This document shows positions 18,101 to 34,571 of a stretch of 64,000 nucleotides of DNA, one piece after another. A model generated the notes under the pieces. That model was given only the letters and a program-made list of their open reading frames with translations, had not been told where the DNA came from and made no database searches. Positions within the stretch are counted from its first letter, which is position 1. Every line of letters begins with the position of its first letter. Source of the DNA: Thermoanaerobaculia bacterium (GTDB taxonomy: Bacteria > Acidobacteriota > Thermoanaerobaculia > UBA5066); the NCBI GenBank assembly GCA_963816185.1, contig CAWFJJ010000030.1, positions 256,001-320,000 of the forward strand, written 5' to 3'. Position numbers and translations under genes: made by a program.

Positions 18101-21100
18101 GGTAGCGGTCGTCGACGTTCCGCCGCCCACGGCATTCGGGCTCAGGGAAATGCTCGAAAGGGCCGGCGGATTGATCGTGAGGTTCGCCGTCTTGGTGACG
18201 GTCCCGGCGGTCGCCGTGATCGTTGCGACCGTAACCGTCGGAACAGGAACGGTCGTGACCGCGAACGTCGCCGTCGTGGCGCCCTGAGCCACGGTGACGC
18301 TCGCGGGCACCGCCGCAGCGATGTTGTTGCTCGTCAGGTTGACCGTGAAGCCACTGGCCAGCGGGATACTCGAGATCGTCACCGTTCCGGTCGCCGGCGA
18401 CCCGCCGCCCAGCGCCGTCGGGCTCAGGAAGACGACCGAGAGGGCCGGCGGGTTGATCGTCAAGTTCGCCGTCTTCGTGACGGTCTCGGCGGTCGCCGTG
18501 ATCGTTGCGACCGTAACCGTCGGAACAGGAACGGTCGTGACCGCGAACGTCGCCGTCGTGGCGCCCTGCGCCACGGTCACGCTCGCGGGCACCGTCGCCG
18601 CGACGTTGTTGCTCGTCAGGTTGACAGCGAAACCACCGGCCAGCGCGATGCTCGAGATCGTCACGGTTCCGGTCGCCATCACTCCGCCACCCACGGTCGT
18701 CGGGCTCAAGGAGACGTTCGAGAGGACCGGCGGATTGATCGTGAGGATCGCCGTCTTTGTTGATCCGGAATACGTTCCCGAGATCGTCGCCGTGTGCGCG
18801 GTTGCGACCGCCGTCGTCGTGACGGTGAATGTCTTCGTCTTCGTGTTCGCGGCGATCGTCACGGTCGCCGGGACGGTCGCCGCCCCATCGGAGATGGTCG
18901 TCGACACGACCGCGCCCGCCGGAGGTGCGTTGCCGTTGAGCGTGAGCGTCCCCGTCGAGGAGGCTCCACCGCCGACAGCCGTGGGGCTTAACGTCAGTGA
19001 CGTGAGCGCGGCTGGCATCGTCGAGATCACGGCAGTTTTGGACACGCCTGCAAGAGTCGCCGTGATGGTCGATGACGCGTTCGCAGCCACACCGAGCGTC
19101 GTGACCGTGAACGTGGCGGCCGTCGCGTTCGTCGTGACCGTCACCGTCGCGGGGGCCGTCGCGCAAGTCGTGACCGAGCTGGACAGCGAAACCGCGAATC
19201 CGGTTGAGGCGGCCTTGCCATTCAGGGTGATGGTGCCCGTCACGTTGTTGCCGCCGACGACCGGACTCGCGCTGAGAGTCACGTTCGAGAGAGTTGAAGG
19301 TTGGACGGTGAGCGTGGCGCTCTTCGTCGTGCCGTTGTAGGTGCCCGAGATCGTGGAGGAAGCCGTCGCGACGACGCCCAGCGTCGTGACGGTGAACGTC
19401 GCAGACACAGCCCCCGCCGCAACCACAACGGACGCCGGGACTGTCGCCTTCGTCGTGTCCGAGCTCGTGAGCGCGACGCTGATGCCGCCAGTTTTCGCTT
19501 TTCCGTTCAGCGTGACGGTGCCCGTCGAGGGCGCGCCGGCGACCAGGGTGGTCGGACTCAAGACGACGGACGCGAGGCTAGCGGGGTTGACCGTCAAGGA
19601 CGCCGTGACGGCGGTCTGCTGCTTCACCGCCGAGATCGTCACGGGGGCGGCCGCCGCAACACCGAGGGTGGTCACGGTGAACGTGGCGGACGTGGCCCCG
19701 GCCGGTACCGTCACCGAGGTCGGCCCCGTCGCCACCGCAACGTTCGAGCTCAAGAGGAAGACCGGGACGCCGCCGGCTGGAGCGGCAACCGAGATCGTGA
19801 CTGTACCCGTCACGTTGTTACCCCCGACGACGGTCGCCGGCGCCAGCGTGAGAACCGTGGGAAGGGGGCCGGTCACCGTGAGGGGCGCGCTCGTGGAGGA
19901 GGCTCCGAGCGCCGCCGAGATGGCGGTCGCAACGTTATTCCCAACGAGCGCCGTCGCGGCAGCGAACGTAGCGGTCGATGCTCCCTCCGGCACCGTGACG
20001 GACGCCGGCAAGCTCACGACCGAGGAGTTCGAGGACGACAGTGCGACGACGGCACCGCCCGTGGGCGCCGGGCCGCTGACGGTTACCGTCCCCGTGGACG
20101 GTTGCCCTCCTGCGACCACGGAAGGGCTGAAGGCGACCGAGAGAACGATCGGGGTGGCCGTGAGAGTGAGCACGGCGCTCTTCGTCACTCCGCCATAGAG
20201 AGCCGATACCGTCACGGAGGAGAGGGTCCCGGTCGTAAGTGTCGTCACGGGGAAGGTCGCCGACGTGACTCCAGCCGCGACGACGACACTCGCCGGAACG
20301 GTCGCATTCGGTGTACTCGAGCTCGTGAGCGTGACGGTGGCACCGCCGGAGGGCGCGGGTCCGTTCAACGTTACGGTCGCCGTCGGGACCTGACCCCGTG
20401 GCACACTCGGTCTATCCAGCGCCGCCGAAAACGCCTGAATCGAAGGCGCGACGGTCAGCGTCGCCGTCTTCGACGTTCCGCCGGACGCGGCCGTGATCGT
20501 CACGTTCTTGTTCGTCGTGACGGTCAATGTCGTCACCGTGAATGTCGTCGCGGCGGCGCCCGCCGGAACCGTGACGTTCGCCGGAACCGTCGCGGCAGCC
20601 GTGTTCGAGCTCGTCAGCGTGACGACCGTCCCTCCGATCGCGGCGCCGCCGTTCAACGCGATGGACGCCGTCGACGTGGAGGATCCAAAGGCGGTAGACG
20701 GTGCGAGAGCCACGGAATCGGGAATCGGGACCGCCGAGGTCGTGAGGACGGCCGTCCGGCTGAAGCCAGCGTTCGTCGCGGTGATCGTTGTCGTGCCGGT
20801 GGTTGTCGTGGGCAGAGTCGGGATCGCGAACGTGTAGAGCGTTGCGCCTGCCGGAATCGTGATGCTTGCGGGCACCGTGGCACGGGCGGGCACGGAGCTC
20901 GCAAGAGTCACGACGGCGCCGCCGACGGGAGCGGGGGCGTTGAGCGCGAGGGTCCCGGTCGCGGACATGCTGCCGACGACGCTGCTCTGAACCAACACGA
21001 GTGCCGACAGGAGGGGCGTGACGGTCAGGGTCGCCGTCTTGTTCACGGCGTTGAATGTGGCCGTAAGGGTCGGCGTGACGTTTGCCGCGACGGTCGTCGT

Positions 21101-21358
21101 CGTGACCGTGAACGTGGCCGTCGCCGCCCCCTGGGCGACTGTGACGTTCGCGGGAACAGAGGCCGCAGCGTTGTTACTGGAGAGGTTGACCACCACGCCC
21201 CCGGAGGGAGCGGCGACGTCGAGCGTCACGGCCCCCGTCGCACCGCTCACTCCACCGACGACACTGGTGGGGCTCACGGAGAGGGCGATCAGGTTCGCAC
21301 CGAGCGCCGCAGGCGATGCGAGCAGGAGCGAGCCCAGGACCCACGCGTTAAGACGCAT
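6137..21358 (-). CDS. giant secreted Ig-repeat / Rhs (YD-repeat) polymorphic toxin, ~5,000 aa, interrupted by frameshifts and one in-frame TAG
   Basis: Joins track ORFs 17207-21400, 12297-19166 (3' part), 10798-12366, 11037-11516, 10174-10782, 9080-10432, 7245-9953 and 6137-7267. Order: signal peptide [20 protein letters not shown], ~28 Ig-like ~94-aa repeats, carboxypeptidase-regulatory-like domain, PPC-like domain, DUF6531-like ([26 protein letters not shown]), YD repeats, Rhs core ([29 protein letters not shown]), toxin tip. Confidence 0.85.
13000..21295 (-). repeat. tandem ~280-nt (~94-aa) Ig-like domain repeats, about 28 copies
   Basis: Consensus [91 protein letters not shown]. Copies near 18161 and 18443 are nearly identical at DNA level (282-nt period). 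Confidence 0.9.
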
Positions 21359-21910
21359 TTCGAACCTCCCGAACTTCTTCGCCCGCGGCCGCGCGGCCAC
21401 CTTCAGCGCACGTACTGATCCTTCATTCCATGGAGTGGCTTCTTCGGGTCCTCTTTGACCCTACGGACGCTGTGGAATGTCCAGCGAAAAGAAACTCCAC
21501 CGGTCATCGAGGTCGTGCAGTTGTCGCGAGGTTTGGCGGAATTGGCCACGGAAAGCTCACGCCGGTCCAGATGACCAAGACCATGACCAGACCTCTTGCT
21601 CAGGGCAATTACTCCTCGAGACTCGAGTTCTTGGCGAAAAGCGACGGTTTGCAGCAACAACCTGATATTTCCGACGACGCCAATTCAATGATTCATCTGC
21701 ATAAGAGGCCGGAGGGCGAAAAGACCCCTCAAGACCGTCTCCAAAAGGGGGTGTCTGCGCTTGGAAGCCCGCCGCGAGACTCTGAAACCGCCAGAGTCTT
21801 ACGCCCTTTGCGATCAACCTAGAGGCGCGCCGCCTTCAACGAACCGTCCGGAACTACGGGACGCCGGCGGCCTGACGCTCCAGAAAGCTCGGCAAGCGGT
21901 TTGAGCGCCA

Positions 21911-21942
21911 AGAAACACAACGGCCCGGCTGGTGCCGGGCCG
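21911..21942 (-). terminator. rho-independent terminator of the Ig-like repeat gene
   Basis: Minus strand CGGCCCGGC-ACCA-GCCGGGCCG followed by TTGTGTTTCT, ~50 nt after the stop at 21995. Confidence 0.75.
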
Positions 21943-21994
21943 CCGCTCTCTATTCTTCTAAGAAAATCTTCTCTTCGTCTTCCTCTTCGAGCCT

Positions 21995-23683
21995 TCAGCG
22001 CACGAGCGTGTTGTTGTCCACGATGAAGCGCCGCGTGCCCGCCGACCGCACGTTGCCGCGCGCATCCGTGACCTCGATGAGGAGGTCGTGCTCGCTGTTC
22101 GAAATCTGGGTCGTGTCGAGGTAGAAGCGGAAACGTGCGGCGTTCCGCTGCGCGAAGGCCGGATATTGCTGCGCGACATCGGGGCTCGGGAGGCCGTACT
22201 GGGCGTGGTCCAGGCCCGTCACGGCATCGATCTGCGCCACGCCGTCGATCAGGATGCGCACTTTCACCACGACGTCGAGGTCGAGCGCCCAGCCGATGAC
22301 GGGGAACACGCCCGAGATGAACTTGTAGTTCGTGGGGTCGTCGACGAAGCCGATGGGCGGCGGGTCGAGATTGCCCGTCGCGCACTCCATCGTGATCGGA
22401 ATTTCCTTCAGGAGCGTGGACGTGTCCTCCTTGTCGATCGCCTTGACCTGGAGAATGTGCGCGCCTTCCTTGAAACCCGCCTGCGTCAGGAGGAAGCCCG
22501 CGTCCACGTCGAACTGGAATCCCACGTTCGGCGCCTGCTGGAAGCCGGGGTACAGGACCTCGATGTCGGGCCGGTAGTAGCCGTAGCAGTCGATGAGAGC
22601 GTTGAAGAGCAGGAACTCGCGATGGCAGCTCACGCGCGTGTCCTTGATGACGACGCCGTCCATCTCGAGAACGACGTGCGAGACGCCGCCGCGCTCCTGC
22701 GCGACCGACGTGTCCATCGCCCAGCCGTTGACGAACATCAGGAACCGCGGGTCGACGATGGGGCCGATGCCGGACGGACAGCACGGAGGAGGGATCTCGA
22801 CGCAGTTGCCGAACCACGTGGAGTTCAGGAGCGGGAACTCCACGTCGCCGAACGGCGCGAGATTCGGGGCGTCGTTGAAGATCTGGACGCGGCGCGTGCC
22901 GAGCAGGCCCTGCTGGCCCTGGTCGTCCACGGCTTTCACGGTGACTTCGTGGACGCCGTTCGCATAGCGCGTCGAGTCGACGTTCAGGATGAATCCCGCG
23001 ACGATCGCCTGCGGGTTGTCGGGATAATCCGCGGCGACGTCCGCGCGGTAGATGCCCGTCACGGCCTGCCGCTCGATGAGGCCGTCCACGAAGACGTCCA
23101 CGTGATCGACTTTGCGGTCGTCGAGCGCCCAGCCCGCGACCTCCAGAACGCCGTTCGCGCTCACGCCGCTGTCGGGCTGCGGAAAGTCCACGCTGCCGAA
23201 CGGCGGCTGGTTGCGCGTGTTGTCGATCGTCACGGCGCGCGGCGTCAGGAAGAACTGGCAGCCGTTCACGTCCGTGATGCCCACGTAGATCGTGTGCGAG
23301 CCGTTCGAAAACAGGGACGCCTTGAAGGACGCCTCGTAGCCGGGATGCTGGCCGGCCGTCCCGGCGTACTGCGGAAAGAACTGCAGCACGTCCGGGCGCG
23401 GCAGGTTGATGTTCGCGCCGCCGGCCGCCGAGACGCGGTTCGATTCGTCGGTGCCGTCCACGAAGACATCGACGTTGGACACCAGGTTGCCGTCCAGCGC
23501 GAAGCCGATCACCTGCACGTAGCCCGAAACGGTGTCCCCGTCGACCGGAACATCAATGGATCCGATCATTTGCACCGGACAGGCGAGAGCCTGCCGCTCC
23601 ATGCTCCTCGCCTGGGCGGACGGCGCCGCGAGCAGTACCGCGCCTGCGAAAATCACCGGGAGGATGAGGGCCTTCCGCTTCAT
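21995..23683 (-). CDS. secreted protein with four Ig-like repeats
   Basis: Signal peptide MKRKALILPVIFAGAVLLAAPSAQA; four repeats of PPFGxVDxP..VSG..V.GWALD..V..V.VFVDG..RPDV..GF..NG.H..V...D. Confidence 0.85.
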   Translation of the reverse strand: MKRKALILPVIFAGAVLLAAPSAQARSMERQALACPVQMIGSIDVPVDGDTVSGYVQVIGFALDGNLVSNVDVFVDGTDESNRVSAAGGANINLPRPDVLQFFPQYAGTAGQHPGYEASFKASLFSNGSHTIYVGITDVNGCQFFLTPRAVTIDNTRNQPPFGSVDFPQPDSGVSANGVLEVAGWALDDRKVDHVDVFVDGLIERQAVTGIYRADVAADYPDNPQAIVAGFILNVDSTRYANGVHEVTVKAVDDQGQQGLLGTRRVQIFNDAPNLAPFGDVEFPLLNSTWFGNCVEIPPPCCPSGIGPIVDPRFLMFVNGWAMDTSVAQERGGVSHVVLEMDGVVIKDTRVSCHREFLLFNALIDCYGYYRPDIEVLYPGFQQAPNVGFQFDVDAGFLLTQAGFKEGAHILQVKAIDKEDTSTLLKEIPITMECATGNLDPPPIGFVDDPTNYKFISGVFPVIGWALDLDVVVKVRILIDGVAQIDAVTGLDHAQYGLPSPDVAQQYPAFAQRNAARFRFYLDTTQISNSEHDLLIEVTDARGNVRSAGTRRFIVDNNTLVR

Positions 23684-23814
23684 CACGAGCCTCCGTGCAT
23701 CGAGAATTCCGGGGATACGCTCGGCCGGGACCGACAAATAGAGAGATTAAGGCAAATGAAGTTTATCCCCCGCGAAAGACCTTGTCAAACAGGAGGTTAC
23801 GGCCGGAGTTCGCG

Positions 23815-24786
23815 TCAGCTCATCTCGTCGGCGCGCGCGAGAACGCGCACGTGCTCGACGGCCGCCGCCGCGGTCGCCTCGGGGTCGTAGCCGCCCTCCA
23901 ACAGCGACACGATGCGCCCCCCCGCGAACGCGTCCGCCACGTCCCCGAGGGCGCGCGACATCCACGAGAAACCCTCCGTCGAGACGCACATGCCGCCGAC
24001 CGGATCGGCTTCGTGGGCGTCGAAGCCCGCGCTCACGAGGACGAACTCGGGCCGGAAGCGCTCGGCCAGCCTCTCGAGCGCCGCGGAAAACCCGCCCGCA
24101 TACGCCGCGTCGCCTGCCTTGGCGGGCTGCGGCACGTTCACGGTCGTCCCACGCCCGCGGCCCGCGCCCTCCTCGTCCGCCGCGCCCGTGCCCGGGTAGA
24201 AGGGATACCGGTGCACGGAGAGGTACGCGACGCGGCCGTCGTCCCAGAAAAGGTCCTGGACGCCGTTGCCGTGATGCACGTCGAAGTCGGCCACGAGGAC
24301 GCGCGCGACGCCGTGATGCTCGATCAGATCCTTCGCGGCAATCGCGATCGAATTCAGGAAGCAGAAGCCCATCGCGCGCGACGGGAGGGCATGGTGCCCC
24401 GGCGGACGCGCCGCCACGAACACGGATGCCGCGCGCCCGGCGACGACCGCATCCGTCGCGGCGAGCGTGAGCGACGCGGCGCGCAGCGACGCCTCGAACG
24501 TGCCGGCCGAGAGCACGTTGTCGGGGCAGTCGAAGAGCGCGAAAGGTCCCCCGTAGTCGGCCGGCGCTTGCTTGCAGAGCTCCGAGAGGCGATGCACGTA
24601 TTCCGGGTCGTGCACCCGCTCGACGGCCTTCAGCGTGCGTTCGGGGGCGGGCGGCGCTTCGATGCGCCGTCCGTCCTGCCGGAGCGCGTCGACGGCGACC
24701 TCCAGCCGATTCGCGTTGTCCGGGTGATAAAGGCCGGTGTCGTGCTCGAGGACCGCGGGATCGAAGTAGACGGGCACGGTACGCAC
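23815..24786 (-). CDS. histone deacetylase family protein
   Basis: RPPGHHA, GFCFLN, DFDVHHGNG, FYPGTG, SAGFDAH, LEGGY. Confidence 0.96.
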   Translation of the reverse strand: MRTVPVYFDPAVLEHDTGLYHPDNANRLEVAVDALRQDGRRIEAPPAPERTLKAVERVHDPEYVHRLSELCKQAPADYGGPFALFDCPDNVLSAGTFEASLRAASLTLAATDAVVAGRAASVFVAARPPGHHALPSRAMGFCFLNSIAIAAKDLIEHHGVARVLVADFDVHHGNGVQDLFWDDGRVAYLSVHRYPFYPGTGAADEEGAGRGRGTTVNVPQPAKAGDAAYAGGFSAALERLAERFRPEFVLVSAGFDAHEADPVGGMCVSTEGFSWMSRALGDVADAFAGGRIVSLLEGGYDPEATAAAAVEHVRVLARADEMS

Positions 24787-24824
24787 CTTCCGAGCCTACT
24801 CCAACCGTGGGCTACCATCGACGC

Positions 24825-25916
24825 GTGACAGCATCGAAAAAGGGAGTCCGCGTCGCGATCTCGCTCGGCCTCGCGGTCGTCCTCCTCGCGCTGTTCTTGA
24901 GGACGCTGGACTTCGCGGCCGTGGGCCGCGCCATCGCCTCGGCGCACGTCGGCTGGCTCGCCGTCGCGACCGCGGCCGGCCTCCTCGGGACGCCGCTCTT
25001 TCGCTCGTGGCGCTGGGCTCTGCTCCTGAAGAAGGCCGGACACCCATCCTTCCTCGCCCTCAACTCGGCGACGGCGATCGGTTTCGCCGCCTCGACATTG
25101 CTCCCGGCGCGCGCCGGCGAGATCGTGCGCCCGGTCGCCCTCGCGAAAGACGCCGGCCTTCCCGTCGCGCCCTGCCTCGCGTCGATCGCGCTCGAGCGCC
25201 TCATCGACCTCGTCACCGTCATCGTCCTCTTCGTCGTCTACGCGGTGGGATGGGCGCCGCTCGCGATGAGCGGCGACGAGGCCGGGCGCTTCGCGCTGCT
25301 GCGCCGCTCGGCCCTCCTGCTCGGAAGCGGCACGCTCCTCGGCCTCGCCTTCCTCGGCTTCCTCGCGGCGAAGCCCGAGCGCGCCGACCGCCTCGTGAAG
25401 CCGCTCCTCAGGCCGTTGCCCCCGAAGGTCGGCGCGAAGCTGGAGTCGATCCTCCTGTCGTTTCTCGACGGCCTCGGCACGCTCGGGTCGGTCCGCGAGG
25501 TTCTCGTCGTGGCGGCCGCCTCGCTCTTCCTGTGGACGCTCATCGCCTTTCAGGTCTGGTCGACGCTGCGCGCCTTCGACCTCGTGTTTCCCTTCCCCGT
25601 CTCCTTCTTCGTCGTCACGTGGGCCGTCCTCGGCCTCGCCATTCCCACGCCGGGCGGCGTGGGCGGCTATCACACGGCCATCGCGTATTCGCTGACGGGG
25701 TTCTACGGCGTGGCGAAGAACACGGCGGCGGCGTTCGCGCTCGTCTCGCACGCGCTGTCGTTCGTCCCGATCACGCTCCTCGGGCTCGGATTCCTGGTCG
25801 CGGGCGGATTCAGCCTGCGGAGCCTCGCGGCGACGCCTGTGCCTGCGCCAGAGCCATCGTGTAGTCCGAGCCCCACACCGCCGGATTCGACTCCAGCATC
25901 TCGACCCCCAGCTTGA
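24825..25916 (+). CDS. lysylphosphatidylglycerol synthase TM / flippase-like (UPF0104) membrane protein
   Basis: RSWRW, LPARAGEIVR, ERLID, PTPGGVGGYH; multi-TM. Confidence 0.9.
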   Translation: MTASKKGVRVAISLGLAVVLLALFLRTLDFAAVGRAIASAHVGWLAVATAAGLLGTPLFRSWRWALLLKKAGHPSFLALNSATAIGFAASTLLPARAGEIVRPVALAKDAGLPVAPCLASIALERLIDLVTVIVLFVVYAVGWAPLAMSGDEAGRFALLRRSALLLGSGTLLGLAFLGFLAAKPERADRLVKPLLRPLPPKVGAKLESILLSFLDGLGTLGSVREVLVVAAASLFLWTLIAFQVWSTLRAFDLVFPFPVSFFVVTWAVLGLAIPTPGGVGGYHTAIAYSLTGFYGVAKNTAAAFALVSHALSFVPITLLGLGFLVAGGFSLRSLAATPVPAPEPSCSPSPTPPDSTPASRPPA

Positions 25917-26166
25917 AAAAGCCCGTCTGATCGAGCCCGGCCTGCCACACCACCCGGCAGTGGCACATCACGCGCGTCCGCACGTTCTCCAGCTCGAAAA
26001 TGTCGCCGGCCGTCACGTTCGTCTGCGCGTACACGAGCGCTCCGTGGCTGTTCACGATGAGTGTCGATCCGCTGAACCTCTGCCCCTCCCAGCGCATCGA
26101 AATCGGAATCCTCAGCGCAACGCGCGGACTCCGGCGCAGCTCGTGAAACGCATCGGGCTCGAGCAA
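25810..26166 (-). CDS. PilZ domain protein
   Basis: RRSPR and NSHGA (RxxxR, D/NxSxxG-like) motifs, CRVVW, LGVE; TTG start after GGAGG. Confidence 0.8.
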   Translation of the reverse strand: MLEPDAFHELRRSPRVALRIPISMRWEGQRFSGSTLIVNSHGALVYAQTNVTAGDIFELENVRTRVMCHCRVVWQAGLDQTGFFKLGVEMLESNPAVWGSDYTMALAQAQASPRGSAG

Positions 26167-26204
26167 GGAGCGACCTCCGAAGGGGAGATTATCCGATAAA
26201 GGGG

Positions 26205-26432
26205 TCAGCCCGTCTTCTTCTCGTCGGAGGGCTTCTTATCCATCCATTCCTGGCAGGCCTTGCAGATGAAGGCGTTCAGCCGGGGGACGAATCTCCATTC
26301 GTCGGACTTGTCCGCCTCGCAGAAGAAACACCGGCGCCGCTGGCGCGGCGCGACGGTCTCATCGAAGGGTTCGCGATCCTCCGGGGGCATCGTCGTTGCG
26401 GCTAGTTTGAGCCAACTCCTCGCGCGGCTCAA
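26205..26432 (-). CDS. small C4 zinc-finger protein (ClpX-ZBD-like)
   Basis: CFFC-x18-CKAC; TTG start after a GGAGG RBS. Confidence 0.6.
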   Translation of the reverse strand: MSRARSWLKLAATTMPPEDREPFDETVAPRQRRRCFFCEADKSDEWRFVPRLNAFICKACQEWMDKKPSDEKKTG

Positions 26433-26461
26433 GTCGACCCCTCCGTGGATCCTCGCGGAGC

Positions 26462-26884
26462 TCAGCGCGAATGCCCCGCCCTGTACCGATCAAGCCTTCG
26501 CCTGTCGATCTCGGACGCGATTCCACGCGTGACGAGGTCATCCAGGATTGCGGCAGCAGCCGGGATGTCGCCCGAGAAGGCGAGGTCACGCGAGTGCGTG
26601 CTTCGAGCCTTGCGATAGAGCTCCATCGGTGCGGGGGGAACGGAGAGACCGTGCTGCACCGTGTCGGGGTCGTGAAGCGCCTTCTCGTGGAGGACGAGGG
26701 CGGTCTCCGCGGCTTCCTCGAGTCGACGAACGTCGTAGAGCGCGGCGACGTAGAAACAGAAGACGGGGTAGTAGCGGTCCGCGTTCGCGAAGAGGGGTCC
26801 GAGCGCCTGAATGATTCGCTCGGAATCGGAGGGATGACACTCCGCGTACCTGGCATTCAGCTCTTCTTCGAACGCGTTCGTCAT
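26462..26884 (-). CDS. hypothetical helical (TPR-like) protein coupled to the retron RT
   Basis: ATG 8 nt after the RT stop, with the RBS (TAGGA) overlapping the RT stop codon; 140 aa; no recognised family. Confidence 0.7.
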   Translation of the reverse strand: MTNAFEEELNARYAECHPSDSERIIQALGPLFANADRYYPVFCFYVAALYDVRRLEEAAETALVLHEKALHDPDTVQHGLSVPPAPMELYRKARSTHSRDLAFSGDIPAAAAILDDLVTRGIASEIDRRRLDRYRAGHSR

Positions 26885-26892
26885 GGTTGGTC

Positions 26893-28563
26893 CTAGACTC
26901 CACCGCCACCGAGAAAAGCTTTGAGCGACGAGATTGGAATGGCGCAGTGGTCCTCGGTGTCTCGGGACGTGGCATCCGAATCCGCACCGGTGACGGCGAT
27001 GCCCACCACCTCGCCACCCGCATTCAATACCGCCCCCCCGCTCCCTCCGCGCACGACGGCTGCGTCGAGCCAGAGTCGACGTCTCGGCGATGACCGAAAC
27101 CCGGAGACACGGCCGCTGGTCACGCGAATCGGATCCCTCGGCCTGTGGTTTGGAAACCCAGCGACGAAGATTGCATCGTGGAACGTTGGCTCGACGTCGC
27201 TGACGGCTAGGGCCTGATCATCTGAAAGCACACAGCCCGCGACCTCGATCAGCGCCAGATCAAGCACTGGGTCGCGGCGCAAGATAGTGACCCGGTATGT
27301 CACCTCTGGCTGCTCCGGGCGATAGGCAATCGATTTAGCTCCGACGACATGGTCGCAGGTTACGATTCCAACTCCGCGAAGCGCGACAGCCGTACCTTGT
27401 CGAATGTCATCCCCGTCATCCTGCTCAAGCACCCACATCGCGGGGCCGAGCATGCGAGGAAGTTCTGTAGGAACGAATGGCTCGAGCGGAGCGGGTTCTG
27501 CCGGAAATGGGTACTTAAAAGATGGGACCAGGTCTGAGTATTGTGCAAGGAGACGACGGAAGCACCGGTTTTCCGCCCCGCGGACCATGCGGAGGTAATC
27601 CAGCTTCCCCTTCACGACGCGTTGATAAGACGGGCCCGACCGCTCTGGCGCACGGTGTCCTCGCGCATAGCGAGCGCGGTATTCCGACTCTGCGAGCTCA
27701 AGGCCGAAACGCCGCCACGCGTGCAACATCGCTCGGATCTGACGCACGAGGCGCCGATCGACATTGGGGAACTCGTTGACGGTGAGCCCTGTAACGCGTT
27801 GCCTCTCAGCGGCCCCCGAAAGCCGCACCTTGCCGGGGTTCACAAAGAAACCATTCGACGTAATCACGGCCTGTAAATCGGGCCCGATAGCGACACTAGC
27901 GTCTTCTTGCTTGCGGCATAGTCGGCCCGGGAACCTCGAGGCCGTGGTAGAGAATGTGATGTCGTCGGCGTAGCGGGTGTAGGTCGAGTGGCAGGACCGG
28001 GCGAGTCGCTGGAGCTGGCCGTCTAGACGAGCGCAGACCATGTTTGCCACGACCGGCGACGACGGTGCGCCCTGGGGCAGCTGATTTCCGTGACAGCAGA
28101 TCTGGGCCAATACGGTCGCAACCTCGGCGTTTCGCTCGTAAGGCTTTGCGCGGAACACGCCGCGAACCCTGCCGAAGTTGATGGTCGGGAAGAAGTCCTG
28201 AAGATCAACGTTAAGGACCTGGCACCGACCGACATGCGATGACGCATTCGTTACGATTCCCCGTCCTCGGACGAAACCGTGCACCGACGGCTTCAATTCC
28301 AAGACCGCTTGGAGCACCTGGTTAAGCTTTCGCTGTATCAACTTTAGAGCTGTTATTGGGGAACTGATAACCCTCTCGCCTCCCCGCCTCTTCGGGACGG
28401 AGTACGTCGTGTACCGCGCGTCCTCCGGTATCCGGTGGAGGTGATAGGTGAGAGCGCTGTAGGAAACGTCGAGGAGTGCAGCAACTTCCCGCGGCGTCGT
28501 AAGCGAGAAGAACGCCACGCGCAACTCTTCAGGGCTGCCCGAGAGATCACGTGAGCCGCGCAT
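26893..28563 (-). CDS. retron reverse transcriptase fused to a C-terminal trypsin-like serine protease (type XI-like retron)
   Basis: RT motifs: VPKRRGGERVISSP, HGF, NASSH (NAxxH), DLQDFFPTI, LPQGAPSSP, YTRYADDITFS, RVTGL (VTG). Protease triad: TCDHV, DLALI, GGSGGAV. Probable start is the ATG at 28563. Confidence 0.93.
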   Translation of the reverse strand: MRGSRDLSGSPEELRVAFFSLTTPREVAALLDVSYSALTYHLHRIPEDARYTTYSVPKRRGGERVISSPITALKLIQRKLNQVLQAVLELKPSVHGFVRGRGIVTNASSHVGRCQVLNVDLQDFFPTINFGRVRGVFRAKPYERNAEVATVLAQICCHGNQLPQGAPSSPVVANMVCARLDGQLQRLARSCHSTYTRYADDITFSTTASRFPGRLCRKQEDASVAIGPDLQAVITSNGFFVNPGKVRLSGAAERQRVTGLTVNEFPNVDRRLVRQIRAMLHAWRRFGLELAESEYRARYARGHRAPERSGPSYQRVVKGKLDYLRMVRGAENRCFRRLLAQYSDLVPSFKYPFPAEPAPLEPFVPTELPRMLGPAMWVLEQDDGDDIRQGTAVALRGVGIVTCDHVVGAKSIAYRPEQPEVTYRVTILRRDPVLDLALIEVAGCVLSDDQALAVSDVEPTFHDAIFVAGFPNHRPRDPIRVTSGRVSGFRSSPRRRLWLDAAVVRGGSGGAVLNAGGEVVGIAVTGADSDATSRDTEDHCAIPISSLKAFLGGGGV

Positions 28564-28567
28564 GGAT

Positions 28568-28712
28568 GAGGCGCCCGAAGCCAAGACTCTGCTTTCCGAT
28601 GCGCGCAAGCGCGCGATGCAACCGCAAACGCAGCAATGTTCCCGTATCCAGGGACCTTAGATAAACCGTCGCGGATCAACGACGAAAATCAATCGAGCTT
28701 CGGGCGCCTCCG
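28568..28712 (-). ncRNA. retron msr-msd RNA
   Basis: Perfect 14-bp inverted repeat GAGGCGCCCGAAGC (28568-28581) / GCTTCGGGCGCCTC (28697-28710) enclosing 115 nt. Inside: two short msr-like hairpins (CGUCGU/GCGACG and UCCC/GGGA) and an msd-like stem (CTGC-TTT..GCGCG-CAAG-CGCGC..AAA-C-GCAG). Ends 4 nt before the RT ATG. Confidence 0.85.
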
Positions 28713-28721
28713 TCGTGCCGG

Positions 28722-28750
28722 ATCGTAGTCGGCTGGATTTGATTTCGCAA
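28722..28750 (-). promoter_or_regulatory. sigma70-type promoter for the retron operon
   Basis: Minus strand TTGCGA-17 nt-TACGAT, 11 nt upstream of the 5' inverted-repeat arm. Confidence 0.7.
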
Positions 28751-28831
28751 ATAACGGCCCGCTCGAACCAGTGCGCCTCTTGCCGCCGGTCGACGTTCCT
28801 GAACGCGATTCAGGAGCTGTAGCGAGGCGCC

Positions 28832-29115
28832 TCAGTTCTCCTTGCCATGTTCCTTCTCCTTCTCCTTGGCCGGCGGGTTCGCCTTTGCAGCCGGCGGAGG
28901 GCCCTGCGGCTTGGGCTGCACGTGCTGCACGCGCTGCACGTTGGGCTGTCTCTCCACGTGGGCGGGAGGAGGTTGATGGGCGGAATTGAGTTGTGCCTGA
29001 GCGACGGGCTTTCTCGTGTCGCTCGTTCGACGGCGGAGGCGGCGGCTGATGAACGGTCGCCTTCTCGCGTTTCTCGTGCGAGCTTTTCGGGGGCGGCGAA
29101 TGGACCTCCCGCTGC
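28832..29115 (-). pseudogene. displaced, diverged copy of the 3' end of the DUF6600 gene
   Basis: Encodes ...HEKREKATVHQPPPPPSNERHEK/PVAQAQLNSAHQPPPAHVERQPNVQRVQHVQPKPQGPPPAAKANPPAKEKEKEHGKEN*; 9 mismatches in the terminal 89 nt versus 30362 onward. Confidence 0.9.
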
Positions 29116-29148
29116 GCCTGAAGCTGAAACCACTTTTCCCGGGCCGGG

Positions 29149-29946
29149 TCAGAGCGGCAGAATGGCTTTCCACCGAATGCCGCCGAAGCGCCACGGGCGA
29201 ACACGGAGGCTCGTGCCGTCATTGTACAGGAGCAGCGCAACGAGGTGCTCCGTCACGATATTCAAGTTTCCATCGACCGGAGCCCCCCACTTCATTTCCG
29301 GCAGTGGCGGAGCGTCATCCCCATCCATTCGGAGAGCTAGACCATCTCCACGACCAAAGATGTTTTTTATTGTACCGGTGAAAGTCGGGAACAGAATCGC
29401 CGTCTTCGACGTGATATGGGCCCTCCCGAATAATTCCACCTCCCACGGGAGCTTGACGAGCCCCCGGTCCTTCAGGCGATCGATATGACTGACGGCCATC
29501 TTGATCAGCGGCGCGAATAGTATTCCGTCCGGGACGTATGTTGGGGGGTCGACAGGATTGAACTTCGCCGGCCTTTCGTCGAGCAAATTGCGGCGCAGGA
29601 TATCGAGAGGGGTTTCGGCGTGGAGCGGGGTCGAGTCGGTCGCTGGCACACTTGCCGTGCGCCCGGCCAGTTCTTCCATGCGCCTCAGCATCGGCCCGCC
29701 GGGATCGACGAACCCGCTTCGCTGCCCGGGGAAGTGCTTGTCCTCGAAATGCGAGATGGCGCGATAGAGGGCATCGCTCGACAGGCCCGAAACGATGGGG
29801 CCGGTGAGGCTTCCCCCCGAGCCGCCCTCACTGGGGGGAATGCGGTTGAGCAGCGCGATCACCGCCTGCTGGTCTTCTGACCAGTTTTGGCACTGGCGCG
29901 CTCCGGCCCGGGTGTGTCGGCCAACACGTCCTCTAAGTGACATCAT
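29149..29946 (-). CDS. hypothetical protein with N-terminal peptidoglycan-binding-like domain
   Basis: GGGAGGA RBS; VG..N..DQQAVIALLNRI..GG..L..G......AISHFE....SGFVDPGG..L resembles the PG-binding-like pattern; C-terminal half unknown. Confidence 0.6.
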   Translation of the reverse strand: MMSLRGRVGRHTRAGARQCQNWSEDQQAVIALLNRIPPSEGGSGGSLTGPIVSGLSSDALYRAISHFEDKHFPGQRSGFVDPGGPMLRRMEELAGRTASVPATDSTPLHAETPLDILRRNLLDERPAKFNPVDPPTYVPDGILFAPLIKMAVSHIDRLKDRGLVKLPWEVELFGRAHITSKTAILFPTFTGTIKNIFGRGDGLALRMDGDDAPPLPEMKWGAPVDGNLNIVTEHLVALLLYNDGTSLRVRPWRFGGIRWKAILPL

Positions 29947-29977
29947 GTCCTCCCTTCGGCCCTCTATTCACATTATT

Positions 29978-30028
29978 AGCCAGGAATTCGCGTTGAGCGG
30001 ACGACACGAATTCGAGGCGGTAAGCTAC
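29978..30028 (-). pseudogene. RelE/ParE-type toxin N-terminal remnant
   Basis: (V)AYRLEFVSSAQREFLA directly after the antitoxin stop; truncated and lacking a start codon. Confidence 0.5.
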
Positions 30029-30032
30029 GCCG

Positions 30033-30277
30033 TTACATACCGCCACGCTTACGAACCTCGGCCCAGGATCCTCTTGGGGTTGGCGAGCCGGGAGACGGAC
30101 ACGCTCACGTCGTAGCGATCCTCCAGCTCCTCAAGGAGCTTCAGGTCCGCGATCGAGACGACCGCGGCGACGGGCTTCTTCCCCCGGCGCGTGATCACGC
30201 GCTCGCCGTGGCGCGTGCCATCGAGAACGGGATTCGCTCACCGAGGCACGCGCTCTGGGGGCCACGGCGCGGCTCAT
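30033..30277 (-). pseudogene. Phd/YefM antitoxin, degraded
   Basis: MSRAV..SVSESR../RHGERVITRRGKKPVAAVVSIADLKLLEELEDRYD..KRI/WAEVRKRGGM*, with two frame breaks. Confidence 0.7.
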
Positions 30278-30361
30278 GACAACTCGCATTCTACGGCCCT
30301 TTCACCGTTCAGTCGGCCGCTTGCCCCTGCCAGAACCGCGCGTCGTGCGCCGGCCAATCCT

Positions 30362-31579
30362 TCAGTTCTCCTTGCCGTGCTCCTTCTCTTTCTCCTTGCC
30401 CGGCGGATTCCCCTTGGCAGCGGGCGGAGGACCCTGCGGCTTGGGCTGCACGCGCTGCACGTTGGGCTGTCTCTCCACGTGGGCGGGAGGGGGTTGGTGG
30501 ACGGAGTTGAGCTGTGCCTGAGCGACGGGCTTCTCGTGTCGCTCGTGCGACGGCGGAGGCGGTGGTTGATGGGCCGTTGCCGCCTGCTCGTGCTTGACGT
30601 TCTTCTCATGAGAAGGCTGGGATGGTGGTTGATGGACCGTGGCCGCCCGCTCGTGCTTGATGTTCTTCTCATTCGAAGGCGGAGGCGGCTGCTGATGGAC
30701 CGTCGCCTTCTCGTGCCGCTCGTGCGAAACCGGGGGCGGCTGGAACGCCCGCTCGGACTTGGAGGGCATCGTGCGCGAAGCCTGCGACGGAGCGCGCTTC
30801 TCGTGCTCCGAGATCAGTTTCGCCCGCTCGCCTGCGGGGACGACGACCGAGGCTCGTTTCCCCTGTAGGGACGTGCGGATCGGGACCGCCTGCGTTTTCG
30901 CGTGGGCGAGGCTCACGCGCTGAATCCGCTTCCCGGCGACGCGTTCGACCTGCGAGATCGGCGGGCCGCCGGCGGACAGGGCGCCGCCCTGGACCGCGAA
31001 CCGCGTGACGGGTCGCGAGCGCGCGATGAACGTCGCGTTCTGGGTGACCGGAACGCGCACCGAGCTCACGTTGACGCCCGCGAACTGCCGGGCCGGCACG
31101 AATACATACGCGCTGCGCGACACGGTCACCGCCGGGCCGACGTAACCCGAGATCCCGACGGCGAAGCTCGGCGGGACGGGCGCCCATCCGAAAGCGTCGT
31201 CCGTGATGTACCACGTCACCCAGGCGGGGGCCCAGACGGTCCCTGGAATCCAGATCCATCCGTCGTCGGCGGTGTCGACCCACGTTCCGTAGTGATACGG
31301 GTCGCCGCCCCACGGGTCGAACGAGACCCAGGTCCAGCCGTCCTCCGTGTAGACCCACTCACCGTCGAGATAAGGCTGCCAGCCCACGGCGACGTGCCGG
31401 GGGTGCCAGCAGCGGCCGTAGCTTCCGACCGTGACCCAGTCGCCGTAAGGCGCGAGCGAGTCGTAGAAGAACCCGACGCTGACGGAAACGGACGCGCGCG
31501 CGGGCTGCGCCGGCACGGCGACGCCGACGGCGACAGCCAGAGCGAGTACGAGGAAAACGACGCGATTTTTCAATCGCAT
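30362..31579 (-). CDS. DUF6600 domain secreted protein with Pro/His/Gln-rich tail
   Basis: Signal peptide; FYDSLAPYGDW, WQPYLDGEWVYTEDGWTWVS.DPWG..PYHYGTW, WAPAWV, GWAP.PP. Confidence 0.85.
   Translation of the reverse strand: MRLKNRVVFLVLALAVAVGVAVPAQPARASVSVSVGFFYDSLAPYGDWVTVGSYGRCWHPRHVAVGWQPYLDGEWVYTEDGWTWVSFDPWGGDPYHYGTWVDTADDGWIWIPGTVWAPAWVTWYITDDAFGWAPVPPSFAVGISGYVGPAVTVSRSAYVFVPARQFAGVNVSSVRVPVTQNATFIARSRPVTRFAVQGGALSAGGPPISQVERVAGKRIQRVSLAHAKTQAVPIRTSLQGKRASVVVPAGERAKLISEHEKRAPSQASRTMPSKSERAFQPPPVSHERHEKATVHQQPPPPSNEKNIKHERAATVHQPPSQPSHEKNVKHEQAATAHQPPPPPSHERHEKPVAQAQLNSVHQPPPAHVERQPNVQRVQPKPQGPPPAAKGNPPGKEKEKEHGKEN
30530..30730 (-). repeat. ~63-nt tandem coding repeats (HExAATxHQPPxxPSxEK)
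   Basis: TCGTGCTTGAyGTTCTTCTCAT recurs at ~30588 and ~30651; about three units. Confidence 0.75.
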
Positions 31580-31628
31580 GTTCTTCACCTCCTTCGGGCT
31601 CTTTTGTTACAAGTCGCGTGCCAGAAAC

Positions 31629-33227
31629 CTAGAAACCCTGGGAAGCCGAGAAAGAAACCAGGAGGCCCCGGCGACCGAACGGGTCGCGATCCAGGGCGTA
31701 CGCGAAGTCGATCCGGTAGACGTTGCTCGTGGGCGCGCGGCTGATCGACATCCTGAGGCCCACCCCCGCGTCCGTCTTGAAACTCGAAGGGCGAAGAGGC
31801 GTGCCCGGAGGAGCCGCCACGCCGGTATCGACGAAGAACGCCACTCCCGGCGAGAAGAGATGGAGCATCTCCTTGCCGAGGAAGACACGCTGTTCGAGGT
31901 TCACGATCATCCGTTTGTCGCCCGCGAACGAAAAGAGGCGGTAGCCGCGCAGGCCCACGAGCCCGTCCGCGATGAACTGGACGTCCCGGTCGAGGTTCCA
32001 GCCCTGGTCGTACCGGAGCTTCGCGACGACGGTCTGGAGGTGGCGCGTCGGGAGCTTCTCGACGACGTCGAGGGACGCCGAGACGATCTCGTTCTTCGGG
32101 CCGCCGTTCAATCTCGTTTCGTACGACACCGAGGCCAGGACGAATCCCTTCTCGCCCAGCCTCGTGCCCCGTCCCGCCTTGAGCCGCACGAACGCCGTGT
32201 TTCCGGCCGACCCGAGGAATTCGGGCGCGAACCCGAATCGCCCGGACAGTCCCCACCCCAGGTTGAAATCCTCCACCCTGAGATCGCGGTTCACGTAGTT
32301 CAGCTTCATCAGGTCGTTCTCGGCGAGCTCGTAGCCGACGAAGACGGTGCGGAACGTGCGCGGGTCTGGAAGGAGGTCTCCCGGCCTCTCGGGAAGCGCT
32401 TCGAACCGGTCCTCGACGACCTCCACGCCGCCGGAGAGCCGATGGGCTCGCGCCTCCGACCTGCTGAGGGCCCAGCCCGCCTCGAGGGTCACGCCGCGAT
32501 GATCCTGGTGGTAGGCGGCGTTCACGTCTTCGTCCGCGTATGTACGCGTCGTCTGGCCGAAAACGTCCAGGGCGAACTCGTGCGACTGCGGGCTCGACAG
32601 GGACGCAAACGGGTGGCTCACCTCGGCGCGCGTCCTGTGGCCGTCGGAGTCCCAGCCTTGAGAGAAGCGTCCGCTCCAGTAAGAGCCCAGGAGATACGGG
32701 TCGAAGTATTCCAGGACTCGCGTGATCCGCTGGATCTCCTTGTTGTAGCCGAAGGAGAGCTCTCGTCCCCTCCCCAGGAGGTTCCTCTCGAGGAGCTGGA
32801 GGCCGTACGTCGTCTGCCCGCCGTTGCTCGCGATCGGGATGCCGGGAAGCAGCGACCACGAGTCCTGCGTGACCACGAGGACGTCGACGAGCCCTTCGTG
32901 CGGCGCGCCGGCGGTCACCGCCGCGGACTTGAGAAACCCGAGGTCCCTGAGGTTCTTCTCGGTCTCCTCGAGCTTCCGGGGGTCGTAAGAATCCCCCTCT
33001 CTGAAGAGCAGGAACTTCCGGATGACGGACGGCCGCGTCGTGACGTGCGCCCGGTTCATCGCGCGGTAAAGCCGGGAAGTCGCCTCCTCGGGAGAGAAGA
33101 CGTTCACGGTCTTGATCGTGATCTTGCCGATGCGGAGCGGAGGGCTCTCCGCTTCCTCGGCCCCGAGGCGGAGCGCGGTCAGGAGGACGAGGCTGAGGGC
33201 CGTCGCCGCGCTTCGCCGGAGCGGCAT
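31629..33227 (-). CDS. BamA/TamA (Omp85) family outer membrane protein with POTRA domain
   Basis: TRPSVIRKFLLFREGD..LEETEKNLRDLGFL, ERNLLGRG, LRGY, FFVDTG, GVGLR, C-terminal Phe. Confidence 0.88.
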   Translation of the reverse strand: MPLRRSAATALSLVLLTALRLGAEEAESPPLRIGKITIKTVNVFSPEEATSRLYRAMNRAHVTTRPSVIRKFLLFREGDSYDPRKLEETEKNLRDLGFLKSAAVTAGAPHEGLVDVLVVTQDSWSLLPGIPIASNGGQTTYGLQLLERNLLGRGRELSFGYNKEIQRITRVLEYFDPYLLGSYWSGRFSQGWDSDGHRTRAEVSHPFASLSSPQSHEFALDVFGQTTRTYADEDVNAAYHQDHRGVTLEAGWALSRSEARAHRLSGGVEVVEDRFEALPERPGDLLPDPRTFRTVFVGYELAENDLMKLNYVNRDLRVEDFNLGWGLSGRFGFAPEFLGSAGNTAFVRLKAGRGTRLGEKGFVLASVSYETRLNGGPKNEIVSASLDVVEKLPTRHLQTVVAKLRYDQGWNLDRDVQFIADGLVGLRGYRLFSFAGDKRMIVNLEQRVFLGKEMLHLFSPGVAFFVDTGVAAPPGTPLRPSSFKTDAGVGLRMSISRAPTSNVYRIDFAYALDRDPFGRRGLLVSFSASQGF

Positions 33228-33340
33228 GACGGTCTTTTCACCCTGAAGACTCTTCCCCATGCCTCGGCCTGAAGCAAGAACCCGGCCTCATGGCATGCGG
33301 ACGGGCACAACTCCGAGGAGTCTGGCACCGTAGCTCTCCC

Positions 33341-34462
33341 ATGAGACCCACTGCGAAACTTGGACTGCCGGCTCTCGCGGCCCTCGCCGCGCTGTCCGGG
33401 TGCTCGACGTTCGAGCCGCCTCCAGGCTATGCGATCTCAGAAAAGAGCTGGAACGCGCGCCTCGTGCGCCGGGGCGTCGCGCCCGCCGAGGCCCCGAACC
33501 CGATGGCCCTGACGCCCGAGATGGCGCTCGCCGCCCGCGATCTGGCAGGCGCCGGGACCGAGAGCGAGCGCCTCGGGCGCCTCCGCCAGGCGCTCCTCGA
33601 CGGGAAGACGTTCTCGTTCGAGTACGCGAAGTACTCGACATTCACGTCGACCGAGGCGTTCGAGGCCCGCCGCGGAAACTGCGTCTCCTTCACGAACCTC
33701 TTCATCGCGCTCGGGCGTTCGCTCGGCAGCCGCCTGCAGGCGGCGCTCGTCTCGACGCGCGGTTCGTCCGAGCTTCAGGGCGATCTCATCGTGACCCACG
33801 ACCACATGGTCGCGGTCCTGCCGGCGCGCGGCATTCAAACGGTTTGGGTGTACGACTTCTTCCAGGGGGTCGAGGAGCCGATCGGACAGCTCATTCCCCT
33901 CGACGATCTCGAGGTCGCCGCCATCCTCGCGAGCAACGCGGGCGTCGAGCATCTCAGGCGAGGCGAGAATGCCGAGGCGCTCCGGGAACTCGGTCTCGCG
34001 GTGAAGCTCGGCCCGAGGCGCGGCGCCATCTGGGCGAACCTCGGCCTCGCGGCGCGGCGAATGGGCGACATTCCGGCCGCGTTCGCGGCGTATCGCAGCG
34101 GGCTCGAGGTGGACGCCAGCTCTCCCCTGCTCCACCAGAACCTCGCGGCTCTCTACGTCGAGGAGGGCCGCCAGGCCGAGGCGCGCGCCGCTCTTGCCTC
34201 GATCGACACGACGCGGGCGTCCCCGTATGCCTTCCTCGTGCGCGGCGACCTCGAGATGGTGGGCAGACGTTTCGAAGGGGCGATCGCGAACTACCGGAAG
34301 GCGGCGAGGGCCGACCCGAAGCTCGTCGAGCCGTGGCTCGCGATCGCGCGGACGGAGATGATGCGGGGCCGGCCCGCCGCCGCGCGCAAGGCGGTGGAGA
34401 AAGCGCTCGAGCGCGATCCCGGGAATGCGGAAGCGCACCGCCTCCTCGACGAGATCCGCTGA
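33341..34462 (+). CDS. lipoprotein with transglutaminase-like domain and TPR repeats (paralog 1)
   Basis: Lipobox LSGC; RRGNCVSFTNLFIALGRSLG (Cys), HMVA (His), YDF (Asp); TPR motifs. Confidence 0.85.
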   Translation: MRPTAKLGLPALAALAALSGCSTFEPPPGYAISEKSWNARLVRRGVAPAEAPNPMALTPEMALAARDLAGAGTESERLGRLRQALLDGKTFSFEYAKYSTFTSTEAFEARRGNCVSFTNLFIALGRSLGSRLQAALVSTRGSSELQGDLIVTHDHMVAVLPARGIQTVWVYDFFQGVEEPIGQLIPLDDLEVAAILASNAGVEHLRRGENAEALRELGLAVKLGPRRGAIWANLGLAARRMGDIPAAFAAYRSGLEVDASSPLLHQNLAALYVEEGRQAEARAALASIDTTRASPYAFLVRGDLEMVGRRFEGAIANYRKAARADPKLVEPWLAIARTEMMRGRPAAARKAVEKALERDPGNAEAHRLLDEIR

Positions 34463-34478
34463 CGCAGGCGGTCAGCGG
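34456..34478. repeat. hairpin over the stop codon, duplicated at 35693-35715
   Basis: CCGCTGAC-7 nt-GTCAGCGG at both paralog ends. Confidence 0.7.
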
Positions 34479-34571
34479 CCTGCAGCGCCCCGGCCTGCAG
34501 CTTCTCTTCGAGCGCGACGGCGAGGTACTGTTGTTAGGGGTCACGGACGTGCCTGGACTATGGTGTTCTCT

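Follow-up and report, generated by a model that had tools for sequence, protein, structure and literature searches.

Eco2 (Ec67) is, to our knowledge, the only retron made of a reverse transcriptase (RT) fused to an effector for which structures have been solved. In published accounts of Eco2, its multicopy single-stranded DNA (msDNA) serves as the scaffold of a trimer in which the fused Toprim domain is caged; once the phage protein DenB has set off decay of the msDNA, the nuclease is released and cleaves tRNA. In Wang et al. (2025; PMC12405507) the Eco2 non-coding RNA (ncRNA) is ordered as inverted repeat, branching rG15, 4-nt spacer, single short msr stem-loop, spacer and single 67-nt msd hairpin, and the Discussion states that beyond Eco2 no mechanism has been documented. 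Retrons with an RT fused to a protease form type XI of Mestre et al. (2020), which the accessible text describes as lacking a recognisable ncRNA module. The portions available of two further sources report, respectively, that no published model detects the type XI msr/msd, the only candidate RNAs offered being those of two type XI-like lineages that lack the protease (Toro, 2026), and that ncRNAs from 'clade 8, type XI' were validated (Khan et al.). Here we describe a retron in a 64,000-nt stretch of DNA from a Thermoanaerobaculia bacterium (contig CAWFJJ010000030.1 of assembly GCA_963816185.1, positions 256,001-320,000 of the forward strand), referred to below as the window, whose coordinates are used throughout. 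The locus is very probably a canonical type XI retron, in which one minus-strand unit carries a promoter, an msr-msd RNA of about 143 nt and a clade-8 retron RT fused to an HtrA-like serine protease. It is an ordinary one, its architecture showing no deviation from type XI, and it adds an intact copy to a known, little-studied class. The parts of the unit are as follows.

28722..28750, minus strand: promoter-like site, TTGCGA (28750-28745), 17 nt and TACGAT (28727-28722), recognised by consensus likeness; its function is putative.

28568..28710, minus strand: retron ncRNA gene (msr-msd), 143 nt, from the inverted repeat, the fold and the covariance models R1 and R2.

28697..28710, minus strand: a1, the 5' arm of the closing inverted repeat, from the repeat search and covariation.

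28685..28694, minus strand: 5' strand of an inner 4-bp helix (GATT, 28694-28691), G28690 and a U-rich spacer, from helix 2 of the model.

28666..28685, minus strand: conserved msr stem-loop, from covariation; also flagged as terminator-like in a simple scan.

28589..28634, minus strand: long hairpin, the predicted msd (msDNA template), with approximate boundaries, from the minimum free energy fold.

28568..28588, minus strand: 3' strand of the inner helix (AGTC, 28588-28585) and the a2 arm (28581-28568), from the repeat search and the model.

26893..28563, minus strand: RT-protease fusion gene, stop included, 556 aa (P0001), from Pfam, PADLOC and AlphaFold2.

27778..28398, minus strand: RT palm and fingers, residues 56-262, with NAxxH, YADD and VTG, from Pfam RVT_1 and matches to Ec67/Eco2.

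26998..27396, minus strand: HtrA-like trypsin-fold protease domain without PDZ, residues 390-522, triad H405/D435/S508, from Pfam Trypsin_2 and Foldseek.

A preliminary description of this DNA had claimed an uninterrupted 556-aa open reading frame (ORF) with the retron motifs NAxxH, YADD and VTG, and the analysis bore this out: the frame of P0001 runs from an ATG at 28563 to a stop at 26893-26895 with no internal stops, and all of the motif residues could be placed (N106-A-S-S-H110, Y198-A-D-D201 and V257-T-G259, with H405, D435 and S508 in the protease half). In an alignment of 38 proteins N106, H110, D200, D201, V257, T258, G259, H405 and S508 were invariant, and Y198, A199 and D435 were at least 90% conserved. 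Translation might begin earlier, at an in-frame TTG at 28584 or 28608, and P0003, an 85%-identical homologue, begins at the equivalent of 28584; if that start were used the a2 arm would overlap the first codons. In a database search 8000 candidate proteins were scored, of which 3460 had E ≤ 0.001. RVT_1 and Trypsin_2 were both present in all of the 120 best relatives listed, one of which was 85% identical to P0001 and the others at most 51%.

In P0001 itself Pfam detected RVT_1 at residues 56-262 (E 1.1e-18) and Trypsin_2 at residues 390-522 (E 1.2e-17). Assignment to type XI of Mestre et al., which had been proposed from the letters, was upheld by PADLOC, whose two RT-Protease_XI models both matched over their full length (3.3e-162, covering 3-503 of 506 positions, and 6e-160), whereas the RT-TIR_XII model matched only the RT part (1.7e-124) and the RT-Toprim_I-C models only residues 26-354, again the RT part. 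The C-terminal Toprim domain with EGxxD and DxD/DxE motifs that marks type I-C is absent, the C-terminal half of P0001 being a protease. P0001 is a member of the RT-protease family, and its catalytic motifs are all intact. By hidden Markov model (HMM) scores and by Foldseek the RT stands among retron RTs rather than those of group II introns, diversity-generating retroelements, abortive infection (Abi) systems or defence-associated RTs (DRT), as the preliminary description had supposed. The NCBIfam retron models scored far ahead (retron TIR 2e-105, Ec67 5.8e-97 and St85 8e-56, against 1.2e-13 for the group II intron RT, 4.7e-9 for Drt2 and 2.3e-4 for Drt3a), by over 40 orders of magnitude. Among solved chains, retron Ec67/Eco2 came closest in sequence (1.6e-58, residues 20-287), then Ec86 (9e-39), with group II RTs at about 1e-5.

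The AlphaFold2 model of P0001, built on a 38-row alignment, had a mean pLDDT of 91.6 and a pTM of 0.69, with a linker of lower confidence at about residues 346-367 between RT and protease. With the N-terminal half Foldseek returned as its best match the Eco2 chain 9lm3_E (E 1.4e-29, 35% identity) followed by other retron RTs, so that all 15 of the top chains were retron RTs; with the C-terminal half it returned the protease domains of DegS, DegP and DegQ (E about 1e-11 to 1e-12). The trypsin-like His-Asp-Ser triad of the preliminary description was located in a residue-level alignment, in which H405, D435 and S508 fall on the catalytic His, Asp and Ser of a solved Do (HtrA) protease, and S508 aligns with the position that is Ala in an inactive variant chain of that protease. 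In members of the HtrA family at least one PDZ domain follows the trypsin-fold protease domain, and the trimer is their basic unit. Three copies of residues 365-556 were predicted to associate with an ipSAE of 0.81 against 0.15 for the best control, with at least 88% of contacts common to the runs and a partner pLDDT of at least 84. In the calibration, 20 of 30 proteins solved as one-chain pairs attained that mark, as did 1 of the 23 with single-chain structures; the trimer job differed from the calibration in having its own alignment and three copies. As HtrA trimers are already among the solved structures, the predicted trimer may only mirror the likeness to HtrA.

Upstream of the gene the preliminary description had placed a 143-nt structured RNA closed by a perfect 14-bp inverted repeat. 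This was confirmed at 28710-28568, where the two 14-nt arms (28568-28581 and 28697-28710) are 100% complementary and 115 nt apart, and a2 ends 4 nt before the ATG at 28563. A 161-nt stretch folded at -71.2 kcal/mol (z = -3.1), and none of 200 shuffles folded as well. Read in the sense of the RNA, the parts are a1, a 2-nt bulge, the inner helix, G28690, the U-rich spacer, the stem-loop, a linker, a small second hairpin, the long hairpin and a2. An Rfam scan of the RNA found no family match, giving four chance-level hits only. Since the RNA follows the Eco2 layout with its rG15, G28690 is by its position a candidate for the branching guanosine, which we offer as a lead. According to the accessible text of Khan et al., the extent of reverse transcription is not predictable. 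The msr stem-loop (28666-28685) is followed by TTTAT and resembled an intrinsic terminator in the simple scan; it might attenuate read-through into the RT gene.

Relatives of the locus were collected by scanning metagenome contigs with the protein alignment, which left 80 loci; 35 of these encode an RT-protease that reaches HMM position 500 or beyond, and L011, L013 and L045 are truncated copies. A model-free search kept, for each upstream region, the highest-scoring inverted repeat with a 3' arm that terminates close to the start of the RT. Among 35 sequences (34 loci and the window), which correspond to about 32 independent ones because L068/L069 and L074/L075/L076 are near-identical, 15 scored above the maximum of 105 shuffled controls and 31 scored at least 20 (null mean 16.6, standard deviation 2.4, maximum 25), with the window at 28.5. 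The arm sequences are unrelated between loci, so it is pairing rather than sequence that is kept. In the folds of the upstream regions another conserved hairpin could be seen immediately behind a1, together with two conserved motifs. Plain MAFFT alignment of the RNA regions (A2) left the arms of the inverted repeat out of register, and the sequences were re-cut at two conserved anchors; the structure then written consists of an outer helix of 12 bp, an inner one of 4 bp and a hairpin of 7 bp. When 24 sequences were aligned with MAFFT and left unfitted, pairing was found in 68.5% of cells, compared with 57.1% in shuffles, and in the hairpin it reached 89.9%.

A covariance model, R1, built from this 24-sequence unfitted alignment, was run against 465,393 nt drawn from 94 sources and gave 62 matches at E ≤ 0.01, 38 of them in loci outside the seed. 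All lay in the RT sense and ended between 0 and about 330 nt before the RT, and they included 28 of the 35 full-length RT-protease loci as well as the window, where the match (53.8 bits) was the only one in the whole 5.09-Mb genome. Across 58 distinct matches 81.6% of cells were paired; shuffles gave 60.6 ± 0.9, with none of 500 reaching the observed value, and partners slid out of place gave at most 54% pairing. Changes on both sides were seen in 20 of the 23 modelled pairs, with a covariation score of 0.606 versus 0.233. On the model-fitted alignment compensatory changes were found in all 12 pairs of the outer helix, and the inner helix (helix 2) was 88.6% paired; in the 58 distinct sequences the msr stem-loop had 92.3% of cells paired and both-side changes in 5 of 7 pairs. 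RNAalifold, run on the model-fitted alignment, independently predicted nine outer-helix pairs, all with compensatory changes. When the window was left out and a second model, R2, was built from 56 realigned loci, exactly one site was found in the 64-kb window, at 28569-28709 on the minus strand (56.3 bits, E 2.3e-8). A covariance model from the upstream regions of homologues had been suggested in the preliminary description as a check, and both the inverted repeat and the msr hairpin proved to be kept with compensatory changes. The RNA of the window is one of a conserved, covarying family whose members immediately precede these RT genes and are built like the Eco2 (type I-C) ncRNA. An msr-msd gene closed by a1 and a2 is found adjacent to the RT here and in its relatives. 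The msd hairpin varies in length and sequence among the homologues, as is expected of an msd. In a cyanobacterial locus (L002:2576-2798) short tandem-like repeats, with units TAGGGATT / TAGGCGATC, enlarge the predicted msd to about 220 nt.

The promoter claimed for the unit, TTGCGA-17-TACGAT, is present in its letters at 28750-28722 as a weak match. It agrees with the consensus at 8 of 12 positions; the two strands of the GC-rich window, 128 kb together, hold 25 sites of this quality, and as they are so rare, one about 12 nt before a1 is mildly more than chance would give. A transcript started from it would begin a few bases before a1. A comparable site lies within 60 nt upstream of the start of the RNA model in 18 of 55 distinct loci, about 2.7 times the background of 3.2 per kb.

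The RNA model also matched loci whose RT is 40-57% identical to that of the window but is followed by another C-terminal domain. In 34 such sister fusions Pfam recognised TIR_2 in three, Peptidase_C14 (caspase) in two, TIR in two, and pP_pnuc_1, Metallophos, Peptidase_C11 (clostripain) and Mrr_cat in one each, most of the others having no Pfam match; the consensus of their alignment (A5) contains a Toprim-like TEGxxD motif, and L001 matched PADLOC RT-Toprim_I-C over 3-526 of 529 positions (6.6e-172). These results agree with the modularity of clade 8 described in the available text of Mestre et al. In a FastTree phylogeny of 88 RT domains the window RT pairs with L009 (support 86), and the protease label requires 12 changes, at least five of them forced by well-supported branches, compared with a mean of 27.6 for shuffled labels; the figure of 12 overstates effector swapping, because the truncated RT-proteases L011, L013 and L045 were labelled 'other'. 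The RT-caspase and RT-metallophosphatase fusions may fall outside current retron type names.

By analogy with established retron biology and with Eco2, the retron of the window would produce msDNA and act in phage defence. The RT would bind its own transcript, prime from the 2'-OH of a guanosine adjoining a1, for which G28690 is the candidate, and copy the msd hairpin into branched msDNA; a particle of msDNA, RT and protease, probably a trimer, would hold the protease in a silent state; its release would come from a phage activity by which the msDNA is cut, modified or sequestered, and the freed protease would degrade host or phage proteins and so abort the infection. It is the likeness to Eco2 that suggests that msDNA may hold the protease inactive until a phage trigger. 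Since the 36 type XI loci have no partner gene in common, the protease would act in trans on unlinked host or phage proteins. We tentatively propose, as a possibility for the type as a whole, that type XI retrons are msDNA-caged trimers of HtrA-like proteases on an Eco2 RT and ncRNA chassis, in which loss of or damage to the msDNA would free three PDZ-less active sites to degrade cytoplasmic proteins, and that the RNA family described here is the missing ncRNA of canonical type XI, common to sister RTs with Toprim, TIR, caspase, clostripain, Mrr and metallophosphatase domains. On this proposal, an RNA family shared across the sister fusions would mean that effectors are swapped on a constant sensor module.

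Several observations count against this interpretation. The analogy is drawn from Eco2, whose effector is a nuclease, whereas that of the window is a protease, and in the accessible literature we found no demonstration of msDNA, proteolysis or phage defence for this locus or any type XI retron. On the RNA side, the outer helix was just 59.1% paired on the unfitted MAFFT alignment, where bulges shift the register; the alignments with the higher pair counts (A4 and A6) were fitted to the model, which inflates those counts; and RNAalifold recovered the outer helix only, the hairpin not being predicted. R1 missed seven of the 35 full-length loci (L014, L027, L051, L065, L067, L083 and L050, the last without upstream DNA) and also L088, the sole other full-length copy in the phylum sample. 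Several homologues lack a G in the column of G28690, so that the branching G is not fixed, and the promoter match lies below the scan threshold of 9/12. Support from a defence island is also absent, as the neighbouring genes are housekeeping-like and have no PADLOC matches.

An unlikely alternative accepts the type XI retron but makes the protease either a processor of the fusion, which releases or matures the RT, or a direct cutter of phage proteins, with defence that spares the host. It would suit the flanks of the 36 loci, in which neither a substrate nor a partner gene is conserved, and the predicted structure has at about residues 346-367 a lower-confidence linker that might serve as a cleavage site. 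Proteases of the HtrA family are as a rule regulated enzymes of quality control rather than toxins, and the fold of the protease half matches that family. However, sister RTs carry abortive-infection effectors (Toprim, TIR, caspase and an Mrr-like nuclease) at the same C-terminal position, which suggests that this position holds the effector in P0001 too, and the fused domain of Eco2 is an effector in the published account, as far as that is accessible.

The surroundings of the retron were compared with three genomes of the same genus, which are 74-90% identical to the window from about 21.9 kb to 26142-26203 and then diverge; similarity returns at about 29982, on another contig in one of them. 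GC content is 0.607-0.633 over 26000-29999, compared with 0.69-0.71 to the left and 0.68-0.69 to the right. The retron lies within a lower-GC insertion of about 3.8 kb (26204-29981) that is absent from the three genomes at this position and that contains, besides the retron, P0002 and the minus-strand P0122 (265 aa) and P0123 (120 aa), both without a family match. Three further features belong to this region.

26462..26884, minus strand: downstream ORF P0002, 140 aa, starting 8 nt after the RT stop.

26334..26351, minus strand: terminator-like hairpin and T-run after P0002, from a consensus scan only; possible end of the transcription unit.

29149-29946, minus strand: P0122, 265 aa, upstream of the retron in the insertion; no Pfam, NCBIfam or PADLOC match, and no relatives in the fetched loci.

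The position of P0002 raises the idea that it, and perhaps also P0122, is a lineage-specific third component, such as a TPR-like adaptor, a substrate or an inhibitor of the protease. P0002 follows the RT stop closely on the same strand, with a terminator-like site only beyond it, lies inside the same lower-GC insertion and is TPR-like by language-model features (score 0.95). We nevertheless consider this improbable, as relatives of P0002 were absent beside the 35 other type XI loci and 58 further loci, and it matches no defence family, Pfam, PADLOC and NCBIfam all giving no match. Its homologues form six clusters at 71-78% identity, yet among those listed only one RT homologue exceeds 51%, so most relatives of P0002 probably occur without this RT; in the 400 other genomes sampled from the phylum P0002 was not found, except for two weak matches inside long frames. 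The 305 flank ORFs of the 36 loci held no common family, near-identical loci aside, and a conserved partner on either side, including one of the MBL fold, was accordingly rejected; type XI here is a single gene that needs no accessory gene. Since flanking genes do not recur among these loci, P0002 probably lies outside the retron system, as co-transcribed cargo of the island rather than a conserved retron part.

It is very improbable that the locus is a silent, nonfunctional relic of horizontal transfer. Its distribution is sparse, with the RT-protease model finding nothing in the three same-genus genomes and a full-length match in 1 of the 400 other genomes of the phylum, and the low-GC patch lies beside a probable gene remnant; against this, the frame is complete, the catalytic and family-invariant residues are all intact, the inverted repeat is perfect and the fold is confidently predicted. 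Least credible of all is a 5' leader or attenuator of RT translation upstream of a DRT- or Abi-like RT that makes no branched msDNA: a2 abuts or overlaps the start codon, the msr hairpin and T-run are terminator-like and a conserved purine-rich motif before a2 could be a ribosome-binding site, but the order of parts is that of the Eco2 ncRNA, whose branched msDNA was seen by electron cryomicroscopy in the accessible part of the report (PMC12405507), RT-DNA has been reported from type XI ncRNAs in the available text of Khan et al., and the RT has the retron-specific NAxxH and VTG and scores poorly with DRT models.

Integration at a tRNA was ruled out, there being no tRNA in 20000-36000 and no direct repeats flanking the insertion, and no integrase was seen at the insertion. 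A defence island was likewise ruled out by the absence of PADLOC matches in the neighbours, which encode a histone-deacetylase-family enzyme, an LPG-synthase-type membrane protein, a DUF6600 protein, Omp85 and Big-domain proteins. The break in synteny (26142-26203) falls just upstream of a small conserved ORF at 25810-26166 (minus strand). Other genomes of the genus carry unrelated content at the insertion site, namely small ORFs in G095 (L098:1-1500) and a long 443-aa ORF in G154 (L100:4700-6200), so that the site seems variable. A 37-nt direct repeat, 92% identical, at 28832-28868 and 30362-30398 corresponds to the 3' ends of the minus-strand P0123 and of a DUF6600-family gene (30362-31588), and P0123, which is Arg-rich with a Pro/Lys/Glu-rich tail, resembles a remnant of a duplicated end of a DUF6600 gene. 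Further away, a 2289-aa ORF at 12297-19166 (minus strand) has a third-position GC of 0.73, compared with 0.85-0.94 in its neighbours, and no PADLOC match.

As one more intact type XI retron in a family of thousands of members, the locus, from a high-GC environmental bacterium, is of small value as a discovery. A literature search outside supplements and subscription journals found no paper in which canonical type XI is given a consensus ncRNA or a substrate or is assayed for defence; PMC12548924 does not mention type XI or a protease, and the 'type XI' of a TIR preprint is a type of Thoeris, not of retron. The RNA model is a modest addition, and the supplementary data of Khan et al. bear on its newness. 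It places an Eco2-like msr-msd upstream of most RT-protease loci (28 of 35) and of many sister fusions, and so allows annotation of the RNA and the design of msd-based editors or mutants. Because it has no conserved partner gene, type XI is a one-protein system in which to ask what a retron protease cleaves.

Compared with known systems, the locus is closest to type XI itself (Mestre et al., 2020; PADLOC RT-Protease_XI), with which it shares the single-gene design; the difference is the conserved msr-msd family defined here, where by the accounts of Mestre et al. and Toro (2026) canonical type XI has no ncRNA that is recognisable or modelled. The protease resembles the HtrA family (DegS, DegP and DegQ) in its fold, its aligned His/Asp/Ser triad and its GxSGG serine motif, and in a predicted homotrimer that may reflect only this resemblance. 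It differs from that family in having neither a PDZ domain nor a signal peptide region in the Pfam scan and in being fused to a cytoplasmic RT, and the similarity in sequence is weak (E 1.7e-5 at best). Trypsin-MBL modules of Hachiman, AVAST and some retrons (bioRxiv 10.1101/2025.09.03.673762), as described in the text available, also place a trypsin-like protease inside an anti-phage system, but in these modules an N-terminal protease activates the MBL-fold effector next to it, whereas that of the window is C-terminal and has neither an MBL protein nor a recurrent neighbour. With Eco2/Ec67 (type I-C, RT-Toprim) the retron shares the closest solved RT, a one-protein design and the plan of the RNA (a1/a2, branch G, short spacer, one short msr stem-loop and one long msd hairpin), and RNA models built on type XI loci also match RT-Toprim loci such as L001. 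The effector of Eco2 is a Toprim RNase in place of an HtrA-like protease, and its trimer, its trigger DenB and its cleavage of tRNA have been demonstrated in the work accessible to us, whereas for type XI a caged trimer and a phage trigger are predictions. Type XII (RT-TIR) and the other clade-8 fusions have RT halves 40-57% identical to that of P0001 and the upstream RNA family in common with it, and are set apart by the domain at the C-terminus.

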